NCBI GenBank assembly: GCA_019058295.1 | Contig: JAHPZI010000006.1 | Location: 1-64,000 of the forward strand | Source: Promethearchaeota archaeon | Lineage (GTDB): Archaea; Asgardarchaeota; Lokiarchaeia; Sigyniarchaeales; SOKP01 | DNA length: 64,000 bases | Reading direction: 5' to 3' | Shown: piece by piece, positions 2,000-57,202 of the stretch | Position numbering within the stretch: position 1 is the stretch's first letter | Layout: every line of letters begins with the position of its first letter | Notes under the pieces: generated by a model | Database searches by the model: none | Seen by the model: only the letters and a program-made list of their open reading frames with translations | Told to the model about the DNA's origin: nothing | Position numbers and translations under genes: made by a program

Positions 2000-3379
2000 A
2001 TGGAATTTAAGTATATTCAGAAAACACCCCTTTATAATGCATTCTCAGAGTTAGGAAAAAGGATTTTTCTACCAGACGGTATATTTTATTGGTCAAGGAG
2101 GGCAAAAAAGGAAGCTGAGATTATCGGGACAATTGGATCTGCTTTTGCTAAAGAAAAAGATTTCATCGATGGAGGATCTGATGAGTGGGTACCGTGTTAT
2201 TTAAAGGACATTAAGAACTATTCCAACCTACACATTAAGGAAATTGTTCCGTATGCTTCAATTGGAGGCCTTCCAGATACAAGAGAGATTTGGAAAAAAT
2301 ATCTTATTAGAAAATCTTTATACGATGGAGAAACAGAAAAAGAGAAGCTTGTGAGGCTTAAAAAGTATATCACGACACCAATAATCACTTCAGGTGTAAC
2401 AAATGGAATTTTCTTAAGTTGTTCGATGTTTCTAAATCCGGGAGAATATATTATTTCTCCAAATAAGAGATGGGGAAATTACGATAACATTATAGTAAAA
2501 AATCTAGGAGCTCAGATTAAATCTTTCGATTTTTTTAAGGATAATAAGATTAATTTACAGGGATTTAAAGAAGCAATTTTAGAAGTTTCTAAAGTGCAGG
2601 AGAAAATAGTTATAATACTAAACTTCCCGAATAACCCTACAGGTTATACGCCAACTTTGGATGAGGCTAAAGAATTAATTGAACTGCTAAGAAATATGTA
2701 TAGTCCCTTGAAAAAACCTATTATTGTAATCGTGGACGATGCTTATGAATCTTATGTCTATAATGATGATAACTTAAATATTTCATGGTTCTACGATCTG
2801 CATCAATTAGACGAGGATATTATTCCAATTAAATTGGATGGGATAACAAAAGAGCTTTTAATGTATGGTGGGAGAATCGGGTTCGTAACTATAGGTATAA
2901 AACCAAAATGGACTAAAAACGATGATGAATTAGAACTTCTGAAAAAAGAGATCGAAAACAAATTGGAGGGTATGAATAGGAGTACAGTGTCAAATTGCAA
3001 CCACTTCTATCAAGCTATAACTCAAAAAATATTTATAGAAAAGGGAATGGAACAGATTATTACAGATCGAGACAAGGTTAAAAATTTACTTAAAGAAAGA
3101 TACGAAGAAATTAATTCTGAACTAGAAAAAATAGATAATCCAAATATAACTATTGACCCTAACTCAGGTGGTTTCTTTCTGTTTATAAATCTAAATCGAG
3201 ATAAAATTAAAGCTACTGAATTTGCAGACCATTTATTAAAAAAATATAAAGTCGGAGTAATCCCTATTGAAAAAGTAAACGAAAATATTAACGGTATTCG
3301 AATTGCCTATTGTTCTATTGATAAACATCAAATACCCGAGTTAATAAGCAGAATTAATTCAGCACTTAGAGATTTTTAA
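2000..3379 (+). CDS. PLP-dependent aminotransferase, class I/II
   Basis: NFPNNPTGY, VDDAY, DGITKE...GGRIG (PLP lysine), IRIAY. Confidence 0.9.
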   Translation: MEFKYIQKTPLYNAFSELGKRIFLPDGIFYWSRRAKKEAEIIGTIGSAFAKEKDFIDGGSDEWVPCYLKDIKNYSNLHIKEIVPYASIGGLPDTREIWKKYLIRKSLYDGETEKEKLVRLKKYITTPIITSGVTNGIFLSCSMFLNPGEYIISPNKRWGNYDNIIVKNLGAQIKSFDFFKDNKINLQGFKEAILEVSKVQEKIVIILNFPNNPTGYTPTLDEAKELIELLRNMYSPLKKPIIVIVDDAYESYVYNDDNLNISWFYDLHQLDEDIIPIKLDGITKELLMYGGRIGFVTIGIKPKWTKNDDELELLKKEIENKLEGMNRSTVSNCNHFYQAITQKIFIEKGMEQIITDRDKVKNLLKERYEEINSELEKIDNPNITIDPNSGGFFLFINLNRDKIKATEFADHLLKKYKVGVIPIEKVNENINGIRIAYCSIDKHQIPELISRINSALRDF

Positions 3380-3506
3380 TTTAATATTTTTTTTTATTTT
3401 AGATGTTCTTTTTATAAAAATATGTGAAAATGATTCTAAAGATTTTTATAAATCTTTTACTATAATCACTATACTTAAACTTAAAAAAAAAAAATTAGTG
3501 AATATA

Positions 3507-4508
3507 ATGGTTAAATTATTTTTAATCAATAAAGGGGAATTGAACGAAATTCCGAATCCAGTATTCTCAACTGGAGATGTATATCTTCTTGATGATGAGA
3601 AGACTATATACGTATGGATAGGAAGTAAGTGCAGCGTTGATGAGAAAACAACAGGTGCAGCTAATGCTCGTAAATTAGATCAGGAGAGAGGAGGAGCAGC
3701 AAAAATCATTACCGTAGACCAAGGTCAGGAAACCTCTGATTTTTTAAAGGCTGTTACCTCAATTGGAGTAATGAAAGTAGTTGAGAAGAATATTGCGAAG
3801 ACACTCTTAAAAGACGTGGTTACTGGTGATTATGCACAGTTTGCAGAACATAAAAATGTTTTATATCAAGTATCTTCTGAAGAATTTGAAAATATTAATA
3901 CTATGAAAATGATTCAAGTACCATTTTCTAAAGATTCTCTAGTTTCTGAAGATTGTTTTGTTGCTGATTTAGGAACCAAGGTATATATATGGCAAGGAAA
4001 CGCATGTAATGTAAAAGAAAAAGTAAAAGCAGGTCAATGGGCTAGAAATATTGATGCTGAACGCGCAGGATCTCAAAATGAAGTAATATTTGAAGAGGGG
4101 GATGATGCTGACTTTTTAGCTGCCTTAGAAAAAGGCGTGGATTATAAAGAATCAGATGCAGTTCAACTAAGAGCAGAGTCCGTCTTAGAGCCTGAAACAG
4201 AGGCAGACAAAGCTGTTGCTGCTATTGAACCAGAACATAAAGCGGAGGTTAAAGATGCTGGTCCTCCTCAAATTAAACAAGAAATATCTTCAGGTGCTGC
4301 TCCTGGTAGACCAGGTCAAGTGGATGAGTCAATTTTAACAATTCCAAAAGCCGAAGGTCGACGAAAATGCCCTAACTGTGATAATGAAGATAAAGGCCTG
4401 ATTCACGAGTCGATAGATAAGACCAACATAATTTTAGATTATCCTAGAATGTACGGTAAGAAATTCAAATGTGGTCTTTGTGGTGCGATGTGGAGGGAAA
4501 GGAGTTAA
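3507..4508 (+). CDS. Two-domain gelsolin (Asgard 2DGel-like) with a C-terminal zinc ribbon
   Basis: Two gelsolin repeats: GDVYLLDDEKTIYVWIGSKCS..EK..QGQET and EDCFVADLGTKVYIWQGNACNVKEK..EEGDD. Acidic/Pro linker, then CPNC...CGLC. ATG at 3507 (track uses GTG at 3498). Confidence 0.88.
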   Translation: MVKLFLINKGELNEIPNPVFSTGDVYLLDDEKTIYVWIGSKCSVDEKTTGAANARKLDQERGGAAKIITVDQGQETSDFLKAVTSIGVMKVVEKNIAKTLLKDVVTGDYAQFAEHKNVLYQVSSEEFENINTMKMIQVPFSKDSLVSEDCFVADLGTKVYIWQGNACNVKEKVKAGQWARNIDAERAGSQNEVIFEEGDDADFLAALEKGVDYKESDAVQLRAESVLEPETEADKAVAAIEPEHKAEVKDAGPPQIKQEISSGAAPGRPGQVDESILTIPKAEGRRKCPNCDNEDKGLIHESIDKTNIILDYPRMYGKKFKCGLCGAMWRERS

Positions 4509-7653: not shown

Positions 7654-8742
7654 CTATATTAAATTCCCATCTAAGAACCCTCTAACGTATTTTGAGTATA
7701 GAGTTTTCCATCTAGTTGGGATGGACGACATGATGGCACAACCTAACCGACACCCATCGCAAAAATTATAATCGTCGTGTTTTTTCATAATATCTTTAAC
7801 TTCTTGACTATAATAGATATTTGAAAGAGAATGGTTAAATGCGTTAAAACTTTTTATAGGGTTTATTTTACAAGGAAAATCAATAAAGCCGTCGTGTCTT
7901 ATAAACATATAAGCTTCAGCAACGTGGCACCTCAATATATCTTGATATTTTTGATTACCATCATGATTTCCACCAAAACCTCCCTTTTCTATAATTTCGA
8001 CACTAACGGGATCTGTTAATATATTTTTAAATTTAGATCTTAAATCTCTTATTTTATTAGCCCAAATTGTTAAATCTGGAATTAAATCTTGAATCCCATT
8101 GCCACGATAACTTTTACCAGAAATATTCCAAATTATATCTTCGCAAGGATATAGTTCAATCGCACAGTTTAAATTTTCAGCTAATTCACATAAATCTTCT
8201 AGTAGATCTAAATTTTGTTTCATTACAACTGTACTTATAACAACTTTAATATCCTTTTTATTTGCTAAATGAATAGATTTAATGACTTTATCAAAAACTT
8301 TAATTCCTCGTAATTTATCATGTAATTCAGCAGTAGGATAATCAAGTGAGGTTAATATAAAATCTAATCCTTCAAATTTAGGTATCAATTCAGGCAATAA
8401 GAATCCATTACTTGTGATCCCGTTAAAAAAATTATGATGTATTCCCATATGATATATAAGTTCAGGAAGATCTTTCCTTAAAGTCGGCTCACCCCCCGTA
8501 AGCGATAGCGCATTTATTCCTAACTCGGCAAGCTGATCTATTAAATATTTAATTTGTTCTGTTGTCATTTCCTTATTAACATAATACTCTGGCAATGTAT
8601 CAATTGCGCAAAATGGACATTTAGCATTGCATTTTAAATTCACTTCTATTTGCGCTGAATATGGAACTTTTTTTGCTGTAAAATTATTTAAAAGAAAATT
8701 CCTTATTGATAAAAACCAATTTCTAACTCTTTTACGAGGAAT
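7654..8742 (-). CDS. Radical SAM/SPASM-type protein; probable ATT start at 8742 (track starts at GTG 8643)
   Basis: CNAKCPFC, LTGGEPTLR, C-terminal C...PC...CDGC..GC. The frame stays open upstream of 8643 (PRKRVRNW...KVPYSAQIEV). Confidence 0.85.
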   Translation of the reverse strand: MPRKRVRNWFLSIRNFLLNNFTAKKVPYSAQIEVNLKCNAKCPFCAIDTLPEYYVNKEMTTEQIKYLIDQLAELGINALSLTGGEPTLRKDLPELIYHMGIHHNFFNGITSNGFLLPELIPKFEGLDFILTSLDYPTAELHDKLRGIKVFDKVIKSIHLANKKDIKVVISTVVMKQNLDLLEDLCELAENLNCAIELYPCEDIIWNISGKSYRGNGIQDLIPDLTIWANKIRDLRSKFKNILTDPVSVEIIEKGGFGGNHDGNQKYQDILRCHVAEAYMFIRHDGFIDFPCKINPIKSFNAFNHSLSNIYYSQEVKDIMKKHDDYNFCDGCRLGCAIMSSIPTRWKTLYSKYVRGFLDGNLI

Positions 8743-8929
8743 TAAGATTACACCATTTATTATCTATATTTAATTATTGTGATTACTTTGTTTTATAGGT
8801 ATTATTTTAAAATAATAAATCAGAAATTATTAATAAAATAGCCAGTATTAATTTTTTTTTATTAATAAAGATTTAAAAAAAGTAAAATTAAAAAAAATTT
8901 TTGAATCTTCCAATGAATTAATCGAAGTT

Positions 8930-12068: not shown

Positions 12069-12184
12069 TATCACTATAAAAAAAGTTTGGAAAAAAATAA
12101 TAGTTTCTATGAATTTCACTTATTAAGATATTTCCTAAATTAAAAGAAGAAAAAACTGAAAACAGAAAATTGGTGTGATTAAAG

Positions 12185-13207
12185 ATTTTTGATAAAATTA
12201 ATTGTTCTAATTGCGAAAATATTGATTGTTTAACACGCTGCCAATGGATTGAATTTGAAAATGTAGAGGCAGCGAAATCGGAAATAATGAAAATGATTAA
12301 CGGTGAGGATTCTCGAGTTCTAAGTGAATGCGTTACTTGTTTTGCGTGCGATGAATACTGCCCTTATGGATCTCATCCATTTGATTTAATAACAGAATTA
12401 CAAGAAAAATATAACTCACATAACATTGCGCCGAAACTTCTTGAATCAATAATAAATAGATATAAACCTCATGATGAATTAAGATTAAAACAAATTGACT
12501 CGGATAAACCAGTACTAAATAAATGTGCTTTTGTAAAATCGCATGCTAAACATATGGAAGGGCAATTGTTTGAGAACTTGCAATATGTTGCTGGTCTTGA
12601 TTTTTTTTGCAATCTTTTATATCATCATATCGAAAGAGATTCGATTATTAGAGAAAGAGTTCCAATAATAATAGAGAATATTAAGAAACAAGGTATAAAG
12701 GAAATGATTTGTTTTCACGACGAGTGTTATGGTTTATATGGTTCATATTGTCCAAGAAACAATATAGAATTACCACCTGATTTTAAACCTATCCATTTTT
12801 TTGAATATCTCTACAATTATTTAGAAGATCATAAGAGTGAGATAAAAAAGCTCAATATGAAAATCGCTTATCAGAGAAATTGCTCTAACCGATTTATTCC
12901 AGAAACAGATAAATGGGTTGATAAAATATGTGAATTAATTGGTGTTGAAAGAGTTGCAAGAAACTATGATAGAGAGAACGCATTATGTTGTGGAGGCCCT
13001 CTTCCAATGCTAGGTAAAAGTAAATTATTGAGACCAACTCAAAATAAAAATATTAATGATATGGTGGAACACGGAGCCGAAGCCTGTGTTTATAATTGTG
13101 CAATGTGTATGGATAGTTTATCATCTAAAACCGAGAGAAAAGGTTTAAAAAATTATTTATTAAGCGATTTGTGCCGGTTAGCATTAGGCGAGACGTTGAA
13201 TTATTAA
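12185..13207 (+). CDS. Fe-S oxidoreductase (HdrD/GlpC-like, CCG domains); probable ATT start at 12185
   Basis: CVTCFACDEYCP, CFHDECY, CCGG, CAMC. A further Cys motif, CSNCENIDCLTRC, lies in frame upstream of the track start (12287). Confidence 0.85.
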   Translation: MFDKINCSNCENIDCLTRCQWIEFENVEAAKSEIMKMINGEDSRVLSECVTCFACDEYCPYGSHPFDLITELQEKYNSHNIAPKLLESIINRYKPHDELRLKQIDSDKPVLNKCAFVKSHAKHMEGQLFENLQYVAGLDFFCNLLYHHIERDSIIRERVPIIIENIKKQGIKEMICFHDECYGLYGSYCPRNNIELPPDFKPIHFFEYLYNYLEDHKSEIKKLNMKIAYQRNCSNRFIPETDKWVDKICELIGVERVARNYDRENALCCGGPLPMLGKSKLLRPTQNKNINDMVEHGAEACVYNCAMCMDSLSSKTERKGLKNYLLSDLCRLALGETLNY

Positions 13208-51491: not shown

Positions 51492-51510
51492 GATAAGAAG
51501 GTGACTTGAG

Positions 51511-51693
51511 ATAGTTAAGGTTAAGAAATGTTCTTTCTGTGGCTTCGACATCCCCATTGGAAGAGGGATAATGTTTGTTAGGGGAGATGGTACTATTCTA
51601 AACTTTTGTACAGCAAAATGCAGAAAATCAATGTTAAAATACAAGAAAAATCCGAGGAAAACTCGCTGGACTGCCCACTACGGCAAGCATTAA
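51511..51693 (+). CDS. rpl24e: 50S ribosomal protein L24e; ATA start, missing from the ORF track
   Basis: (M)VKVKKCSFCGFDIPIGRGIMFVRGDGTILNFCTAKCRKSMLKYKKNPRKTRWTAHYGKH*. Confidence 0.93.
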   Translation: MVKVKKCSFCGFDIPIGRGIMFVRGDGTILNFCTAKCRKSMLKYKKNPRKTRWTAHYGKH

Positions 51694-56396: not shown

Positions 56397-56594
56397 TTAA
56401 CGAACTCGTAGCGCATATTTGCCCGGCATTCCAACTTTAAGGTATTCAGCGATTTTTGATTCACCCGGTTTAAGAATAATAACCTCTCCCGTAAAATCGT
56501 CACTTAAAGTGTGAGTTTTGCATTTTGGGCAAACTTGCTCGCTTTTAGTTATAATATGGCACGTTTTACAAGCTTTTTCTTTAATAATAACCAC
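56397..56594 (-). CDS. spt4: Transcription elongation factor Spt4 (RpoE'')
   Basis: KACKTCH...CPKC...SDDFTG.VII..P..S.IA...PGKYALRV. Start is GTG 56594 or ATT 56585. Confidence 0.92.
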   Translation of the reverse strand: MVIIKEKACKTCHIITKSEQVCPKCKTHTLSDDFTGEVIILKPGESKIAEYLKVGMPGKYALRVR

Positions 56595-56598
56595 CCAT

Positions 56599-57162
56599 TT
56601 AGCTTGCCTTTTCAGCAAGTTCTTCTTCGATATCAGCTTGAATCCAATCTTCCTTCCCTAAGAATCTTTGTCGCATAGTTAATCCCAGTTTACCCGAGCG
56701 CCCCATACCGAGAGAGACCGCTATAATTCTTGCTCTCACTGAGTCTTTTACTTCAAGGATTTTTCCTGTTTCCTTTCCTATAAATCTATTTCCTACTTGT
56801 TCGTATGATATGTAGTCATCACATATTTGTGACACATGTACAAGACCATCAAGGGGCCCTAGGCGAATAAAGGCTCCAAAATCAACAATTTCAACGATAT
56901 CTCCCTCAATGATTTCTTGTAATGATGGTTTGAAAGAAAGAATTGTAAATTCGACCTCATGGAAGGTATTTGGCTGACCTGGGATTATTATACCAGGGCC
57001 AACATTGAGTACATCAACGATAGCAATAATAAAACCGTATTCTCTGGTAATAATTCCTTCATAATCTTCACTAAGAATAATTCTTGCCGATACAACTTTT
57101 TCCTGGCTAAATAAGAAGGGAGGAATTTCTATCTTTCCCGCGATTGTGTAAAGCTTGAATAT
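56599..57162 (-). CDS. rpoE1: RNA polymerase subunit E' (Rpo7); ATA start at 57162, only the last 78 aa are in the track
   Basis: (M)FKLYTIAGKIEIPPFLF...YEG...IIPG...FKPSLQEIIEGDIVEIVDFGAFIRLGPLDGLVHVSQI...VRARI...LTMRQ.FLGK..W; 187 aa. Confidence 0.94.
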   Translation of the reverse strand: MFKLYTIAGKIEIPPFLFSQEKVVSARIILSEDYEGIITREYGFIIAIVDVLNVGPGIIIPGQPNTFHEVEFTILSFKPSLQEIIEGDIVEIVDFGAFIRLGPLDGLVHVSQICDDYISYEQVGNRFIGKETGKILEVKDSVRARIIAVSLGMGRSGKLGLTMRQRFLGKEDWIQADIEEELAEKAS

Positions 57163-57180
57163 AATTAATCAACCTCTTAA

Positions 57181-57202
57181 TCTGAGCGCTCTCCTCAGAG
57201 CA
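57181..57202 (-). promoter_or_regulatory. GC-rich hairpin element in the rpoE' leader
   Basis: Minus strand TGCTCTGAGGAGAGCGCTCAGA, just upstream of the GAGGTTGA SD-like site. Confidence 0.35.

Follow-up and report, generated by a model that had tools for sequence, protein, structure and literature searches.

Probable Shine-Dalgarno-anchored initiation at AUA, AUU and AUC codons in a Promethearchaeota genome

An rpo7 gene that very probably opens at ATA

Does the gene for RNA polymerase subunit E' (Rpo7) in this Promethearchaeota genome begin at an ATA codon, and is it alone in doing so? In the window, the whole 64,000-nucleotide stretch of DNA that was analysed, rpo7 lies on the minus strand at 56599..57162 and comprises 187 codons and a TAA stop, with the proposed ATA start at 57162-57160; the corresponding stop-to-stop frame, also on the minus strand, is 56599..57168. 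The minus-strand leader reads gaGAGGTTGAttaatt ATA TTC AAG CTT TAC, also written ...CTGAGgagagcgCTCAGattaaGAGGTTGAttaatt ATA TTC AAG CTT TAC. It holds a Shine-Dalgarno-like (SD) GAGGT at 57176-57172 and an in-frame TGA at 57171-57169, an element that spans 57169..57176 on the minus strand and ends 6 nt before the ATA. The first ATG, GTG or TTG of the frame is a GTG at codon 110, counted from the ATA. Pfam places the SHS2_Rpb7-N domain at residues 10-64 of the product (profile positions 3-57 of 57) and an S1 domain at residues 81-149, and a start at GTG 110 would therefore delete the SHS2 domain and part of S1. Given these domain positions and the late first canonical codon, a complete Rpo7 requires initiation at the ATA or right beside it, and this codon aligns with Met1 in more than 100 orthologues. 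The preliminary description had proposed an ATA start, a 187-residue product, a TGA three codons upstream and no ATG, GTG or TTG for 109 codons; all of this was confirmed, for a gene on the minus strand, a detail that the description had left out. Read-through of the TGA from a start farther upstream was considered and rejected, since the sequence 5' of the ATH codon (ATA, ATT or ATC; AUH in mRNA) is not conserved among orthologues.

Contigs from two other samples of the same study cover positions 57160-57162 at 99% identity or higher. They differ from the window at 2 and 4 positions in total, and among the differences listed none falls at a start codon; this check is based on assembled Logan contigs, with 520 further differences beyond those listed, and lends weak support. 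The ATA context of rpo7 is also identical in a second assembly, at locus L030. That locus (G007:C45:2240-5398) is an incomplete extra copy of rpo7, interrupted by a TAA, in the assembly of a relative. Its upstream region and ATA are identical to those of the window, and the main G007 copy has ATG and a different leader; the partial copy is probably a fragment from a strain that was co-binned. Just upstream of the rpo7 SD site, at 57182-57198 on the minus strand, lies a hairpin, CTGAG-7 nt-CTCAG. The same CTGAG...CTCAG stem precedes rpo7 in several congeners (L006-L008, L030) with a varying loop sequence, and it may be a leader or processing element.

Other genes in the window open in a similar way. 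The gene rpl24e (51498..51693, plus strand; 60 codons and a stop) has the SD AAGGTGA at 51498-51504, followed after 6 nt by ATA at 51511. Read from this ATA, the product matches Pfam Ribosomal_L24e over residues 3-57 (profile positions 2-55), and the first ATG, at codon 21, lies 3' of the CxxC zinc motif. A Cys-rich Fe-S/CCG-domain protein is encoded at 12172..13207 on the plus strand (340 codons and a stop), with the SD GGTGTGA at 12172-12178 and, again after 6 nt, ATT at 12185. Its N-terminal motif, FDKxNCxxCExIDCLxRCQW, is kept in 16 relatives whose genes have ATG, ATT or ATA at the start position; the first ATG here is codon 35. The shared layout of SD, 6-nt spacing and AT[A/T] that had been pointed out for rpl24e and the Fe-S gene is borne out by domain positions and orthologue alignments. 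The same two lines of evidence uphold the ATT start at 8742 of a radical SAM/SPASM protein (7654..8754, minus strand; 362 codons and a stop), where the SD spacing is 8 nt from a GGTG at 8754-8751. The 33-residue N-terminal extension of this protein is conserved across the family. GTG codon 34 was tried as the radical SAM start and rejected, since conservation extends over the 33 residues ahead of it and does not include the GTG itself.

The fifth gene, spt4 (56397..56594, minus strand), directly follows rpo7 and could start at ATT 56585, with GGGTGG 5 nt upstream, or, in frame and three codons earlier, at GTG 56594. The position of the ATT is homologous to Met1 of the relatives, which have ATG/ATA/GTG/TTG AAA GAA AAA there, and spt4 at L280 and L287 has ATA behind AGGTGA with an in-frame TGA. 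From this alignment the ATT appears the likelier start. The suggestion that spt4 also uses a non-canonical start stands as far as this homology goes; the upstream GTG means that such a start is not strictly needed. In all, the window holds 3-5 genes with ATH starts among 61 frames. A 386-codon frame at 3348-4505 (plus strand) has its first canonical start, a GTG, at codon 51, and the region preceding it contains no SD-supported ATH.

ATH codons behind SD sites across the genome

The window belongs to a metagenome-assembled genome (MAG) that is 79% complete with 3.6% contamination. From its 3.2 Mb (30 contigs, 30.7% GC) we built 2742 coding frames. The 3' end of 16S rRNA was not found in this 79%-complete assembly, so ATG genes served to define the SD consensus. 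Where the ATG start is unambiguous, a GGTGA motif precedes it, preferably with the final A 6 nt away. Candidate sites were codons located before the first canonical start of a frame; we required 5 nt or more of SD match at a spacing of 5-8 nt, and no canonical start was allowed among the 5 codons that follow.

SD sites preceded 40 of 1072 ATT codons, 37 of 957 ATA codons and 7 of 232 ATC codons. Among the control codons the corresponding counts were 11/1713 for AAA, 7/992 for AAT, 5/958 for TTA, 6/956 for TTT and 4/670 for TAT. Pooled, the ATH codons gave 84/2261 against 46/6536 for equally AT-rich control codons (Fisher p = 6e-21). The 84 strict ATH candidates compare with 16-21 expected by chance, and ATG codons of the same kind numbered 165. 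ATA, ATT and ATC were each enriched over the full set of 51 non-cognate sense codons (108/11772). CTG (5/51) and ACG (4/62) were also enriched behind SD sites, in small numbers, and AAG and AGG were not. When the SD match was raised to at least 6 nt and the spacing confined to 5-7 nt, the sites comprised 42 ATG, 18 ATT, 17 ATA, 14 TTG, 3 GTG and 2 ATC codons. ATC and, less so, CTG and ACG thus belong in the start set besides ATA and ATT.

After chance subtraction we estimate a minimum of about 65 AUH-start genes, close to one in four of those preceded by an SD of at least 5 nt. A mixture estimate put the number of frames that are already coding before their first canonical start at about 72. 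Extrapolated to allow for genes that meet a canonical codon sooner, ATH starts probably account for 4-6% of all genes.

Coding potential and protein domains provided support independent of the codon counts. We also took the frames that reach their first canonical start after 20 codons or more: SD-supported AUH sites were present in 20 of the 49 with coding-looking lead sequence, versus 3 of the 95 whose lead was non-coding-looking. We took 20 further candidates, in order of the distance to the first canonical start, for Pfam analysis. In 11 of them a domain begins upstream of that codon, at residues 2-35; the other 9 were uninformative and none was contradictory. The 11 encode a flavodoxin, a ubiquitin-like protein, uS10 (ATA), uS12 (ATC), two TFBs (ATT), a rubrerythrin, a methyltransferase, a phosphodiesterase, YdjM and DUF5518. 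The AUH-start genes include rpo7, rpl24e, uS10, uS12 and two TFB genes, and probably spt4.

The SD sites of AUH codons are the longer: a match of at least 6 nt was found at 46% of AUH sites versus 29% of ATG sites, and their spacing peaks at 6 nt more sharply than that of ATG sites. An upstream gene on the same strand lay within 30 nt of 37% of AUH sites, compared with 53% of SD-led ATG sites. Coupling to upstream stop codons was accordingly rejected, as AUH sites are no nearer to upstream genes than are SD-led ATG sites. The idea that AUA/AUU initiation is systematic, SD-positioned and more frequent than in model prokaryotes is sustained by an enrichment specific to ATA, ATT and ATC, with which Pfam domains and orthologues agree.

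Start codons in related genomes

At the position of the homologous Met, orthologues in dozens of independent assemblies carry ATG, ATT, ATC, ATA or TTG. Among 76 species, the codon for Met1 of Rpo7 is ATG in 53, ATT in 14, ATC in 4, ATA in 1, GTG in 3 and TTG in 1, mostly with GGTG upstream, so that 19 of the 76 species start at ATT, ATC or ATA. Orthologues of rpl24e start at ATG, ATA (G007), ATC (G012) or TTG (G013), and among the orthologues compared ATA is restricted to this genome and its nearest relative. The radical SAM ATT, by comparison, is shared by all 10 members of the genus and recurs in four other genera. A uS10 hit was obtained in 8 genus members, 7 of which have ATA; G005 apart, the 8 genus members all start uS12 at ATC or ATA. 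From these alignments ATH starts appear to turn over rapidly at Rpo7 and L24e and to be long retained at the radical SAM gene, uS10 and uS12. Their presence at homologous positions in independent genomes excludes sequencing error as the source of these codons.

Two departures from this pattern were observed among the ribosomal protein genes. At L220, L227, L229 and L231, uS12 has a shorter N-terminus, with an ATG three codons downstream of the ATC/ATA position of this genus; as this downstream ATG occurs in some family members, start-site shifts accompany start-codon changes. At L203 (G016:C7), the start-homologous position of uS10 is a TCG behind GGTGA-N7 with no near-cognate codon nearby, which could be an assembly error or a different N-terminus.

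The SD-supported counts of AUH versus ATG codons were compared across the order. In 400 kb of a congener they were 11 vs 12 (p = 0.003), and smaller samples of three other family members gave 3 vs 4, 3 vs 6 and 0 vs 6. For 400 kb of another family in the order the counts were 5 vs 24, and the same statistic for 400 kb of a complete same-order genome of 31% GC, 4 vs 33, was not significant. The ATH-start habit is strong in this genus, and the weak signal in a same-order genome of equal GC argues that it is lineage-specific and that AT content alone is insufficient to produce it. A rate no higher than in other archaea would have refuted the preliminary description; in this comparison the same-order genome of equal GC has the lower rate. 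Some conserved AUH starts could nevertheless persist through AT-biased mutation alone. With a permissive genus and a strict same-order relative of equal GC, the group offers a comparative system for what sets start-codon stringency. Named records place the lineage in the Promethearchaeota/Promethearchaeia, the Lokiarchaeia type of Asgard archaea. Several MAG records are labelled Thorarchaeota, Hodarchaeota or Hermodarchaeota (L276-L282, L291, L295 and others) and encode Rpo7 proteins 79-91% identical to the one described here. All bear the isolate prefixes of one study, and their phylum labels look inconsistent.

Decoding, rival explanations and initiation factor aIF1

The genetic code itself appears ordinary. 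Internal ATA, ATT and ATC codons of rpo7 align with Ile, Val or Leu in 107 orthologues, with Met at 1% of residues or fewer; for internal ATA the figures are 88% Ile and 1% Met. Reassignment of ATA to Met was rejected because internal ATA codons do not fall at conserved Met positions, and the alignment of internal ATH codons with Ile indicates that the code has not been reassigned. The initiator tRNA of the host was not found in this 79%-complete genome by aragorn, Rfam RF00005 or a pattern search. Family relatives have a canonical initiator tRNA with A1:U72 and GGGCUCAUAACCC. Outside the window, contig C22 of this genome (C22:30303-33335) carries 27 intron-less tRNA genes in about 3 kb, among them tRNA-Ile(UAU), tRNA-Ile(GAU) and a tRNA-Met(CAU) with A1:U72 but a weak anticodon stem. 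Several genes of this array carry an encoded CCA end, and the scattered tRNA genes elsewhere mostly have introns; the array looks like an accessory or mobile set.

We consider it very probable, from the comparative evidence above, that this Promethearchaeota genome uses SD-anchored, near-cognate AUH initiation by Met-tRNAi. A GGTGA-type SD about 6 nt upstream would place the AUH codon in the P site through pairing with the 3' end of 16S rRNA. Ordinary Met-tRNAi (anticodon CAU) would then accept AUH despite the third-base mismatch, and the protein would begin with Met. The longer and better-spaced SDs of AUH genes would compensate for the weak codon. Enrichment of ATA, ATT and ATC together with CTG and ACG, and not of AAG or AGG, is the spectrum expected of near-cognate pairing with CAU.

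How well do other explanations account for the same facts? Errors of sequencing, assembly or binning might hide true ATG codons, or the genes might be broken pseudogenes, and a MAG of the stated completeness and contamination, with the rpo7 site covered by contigs only, invites the question. Against this, ATT, ATC and ATA recur at the same positions in dozens of species whose genomes were assembled independently in many studies. The reading frames are conserved and unbroken, and the enrichment is specific to ATH codons with an SD site in front. The contigs of two other samples cover the rpo7 start at 99% identity or more, and L030 shares its ATA context. We regard such errors as having virtually no chance of being the explanation. 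It is also highly improbable that the true starts are the first downstream, or an upstream, ATG, GTG or TTG and that the ATH codons merely belong to an in-frame leader. Standard gene finders would choose such starts, and in spt4 a GTG does lie three codons upstream, but the cost elsewhere would be the SHS2 domain of Rpb7, the zinc ribbons of L24e and the TFBs, most of uS10, half of the flavodoxin and nearly all of the ubiquitin-like protein. In many cases in-frame stops lie 1-3 codons upstream of the ATH, and conservation begins downstream of it, with none upstream.

Termination-reinitiation, in which ribosomes restart at the nearest codon after an upstream gene and the ATH is incidental, would fit the many sites inside operons and the fact that the TGA of GGTGA is in frame at a spacing of 6. 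However, AUH sites lie close to an upstream gene less often than SD-led ATG sites do, rpo7 begins about 180 nt past the previous gene, and control codons at the same geometry are not enriched; we hold this reading to be very doubtful. Special decoding might take the form of an initiator-like tRNA that reads AUH and gives an N-terminal Ile, of RNA editing of AUH to AUG, or of ATA read as Met. The host initiator tRNA is missing from the assembly, and the C22 array does hold a tRNA-Ile(UAU) and a tRNA-Met(CAU) with A1:U72. Yet the latter is without the three G:C pairs of initiators, family members have a standard initiator tRNA, internal ATH codons align with Ile, and codons with third-base A, U and C are enriched along with CUG and ACG, as near-cognate reading by CAU predicts. 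Special decoding is therefore very unlikely, and SD-anchored near-cognate initiation by Met-tRNAi remains the reading that we adopt below.

Individual elements of this behavior have precedents. ATT, ATC and ATA are listed as initiators in NCBI table 11, and E. coli infC (AUU) and pcnB are bacterial near-cognate starts, of which model bacteria have only a handful. Bacterial infC is autoregulated through its AUU start. The likeness to infC and pcnB lies in a near-cognate start behind an SD and in a fidelity-factor gene with such a codon (AUU in infC, AUU or AUC in the aIF1 genes of relatives). The difference is one of scale, since here about a quarter of SD-led genes are concerned, including those for ribosomal proteins and RNA polymerase subunits. 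Moreover, aIF1, a member of the eIF1 family, is unrelated to IF3, and feedback is established at infC but a proposal at aIF1. Mitochondrial codes 2 and 5 also use AUA and AUU starts, with AUA reassigned to Met. Those systems resemble the present one in having AUA and AUU initiators in AT-rich genomes; they differ in that AUA means Met there, whereas internal ATA aligns with Ile here.

In Deinococcus, N-terminal proteomics found ATC, CTG and ATA starts for dnaA, rpsL and infC, respectively (PMC2830850). There too, conserved housekeeping genes, that for ribosomal protein S12 among them, had been annotated wrongly and have ATC or CTG as start codon (PMC2830850). That case is bacterial, concerns four genes called 'unusually important' and has proof at the protein level; the present one comprises at least 65 genes known from sequence alone. 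In archaea such as S. solfataricus and P. abyssi, pairing at the SD sets the 30S subunit in place beforehand, and in vitro aIF1 selects against AUU (PMC6237735, PMC4705826). SD-led initiation and the aIF1 machinery are the same here, but the archaeal starts described in the literature searched are AUG, GUG and UUG, without routine AUH. Eukaryotic eIF1 limits its own synthesis via a weak start context (PMC4705826, PMC3326321); the parallels are a homologous factor with a disfavoured start of its own and a near-cognate spectrum of AUU, AUA, CUG and ACG (PMC4705826, PMC3326321). Eukaryotes differ in relying on scanning and Kozak context with no Shine-Dalgarno site, and their near-cognate starts mostly serve uORFs or N-terminal extensions and are not the sole start of core genes. 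The closest precedent is the Asgard tubulin AtubA, for which a 'rare ATT start codon' was proposed, the gene truncated in GenBank being restored by an upstream ATT (PMC13394414). As in the genes described here, that ATT lies at a plausible distance from a ribosome-binding site; AtubA is, however, a single case from another Asgard family, called rare and presented without genome-wide analysis (PMC13394414). Our literature search found no report of systematic or genome-wide AUH starts in archaea, and for Asgard only the AtubA anecdote.

Where an ATH codon is the sole start, gene finders truncate the gene. The warning that such starts are a source of mis-annotation proved justified: gene callers limited to ATG, GTG and TTG remove N-termini, and several percent of proteins would lose theirs, including core information-processing and eukaryote-like signature proteins. 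Truncation of this kind distorts domain inventories, structure predictions, phylogenies and expression constructs, and AtubA is a published case that needed repair by hand. As to mechanism, the implication would be that AUH codons can serve routinely as starts in archaea, whose initiation factors are of eukaryotic type, when an SD fixes the P site.

What might make this lineage permissive? The preliminary description had attributed relaxed, SD-positioned start selection to altered aIF1/aIF2 stringency. SD-positioned AUH starts are indeed found, but the sequences of relatives give no evidence of an altered factor: their aIF1 motifs are conserved and their initiator tRNA is canonical. As to the suggested tuning of expression, AUH starts may be selected for it or may simply be tolerated. 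The aIF1 gene (PF01253) was not found in this 79%-complete genome. Its loss was rejected because it is present in 18 of 18 family relatives, and we put its absence here down to incomplete assembly. Comparison of the relatives' protein with M. jannaschii aIF1 (4MO0) and with same-order relatives revealed no lineage-specific change in the KRKWG loop, the GGT motif or the ELQGDHR motif. What differs is the start codon of the aIF1 gene. Of the 16 family genomes in which its 5' end could be judged, 15 have no ATG, GTG or TTG before the zinc knuckle; in two more the 5' end is ambiguous or cut. In most of those 15 genes a conserved AAGGTTGTGA-type site is followed by ATT or ATC.

According to PMC4705826, which cites Hasenohrl et al. 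2009, aIF1 keeps AUU mRNA from binding to S. solfataricus 30S complexes, and in its absence such mRNA is bound. The dosage of aIF1 may thus govern permissiveness, and the gene's own AUU or AUC start could create an infC-like feedback that fixes how permissive initiation is, a possibility that we rate below even. We tentatively extend this proposal, with no more confidence, to 100 or more AUH genes (ribosomal proteins, RNA polymerase subunits, TFBs, Fe-S enzymes), which might form a translational regulon that follows aIF1 abundance. The conserved AUH start of the aIF1 gene offers a testable archaeal counterpart of infC/eIF1 autoregulation. In another family, the homologous start codon is ATA in genus g14 and TTG in g11, and the aIF1 genes of three same-order genomes (G029, G023 and G021) start at ATG.
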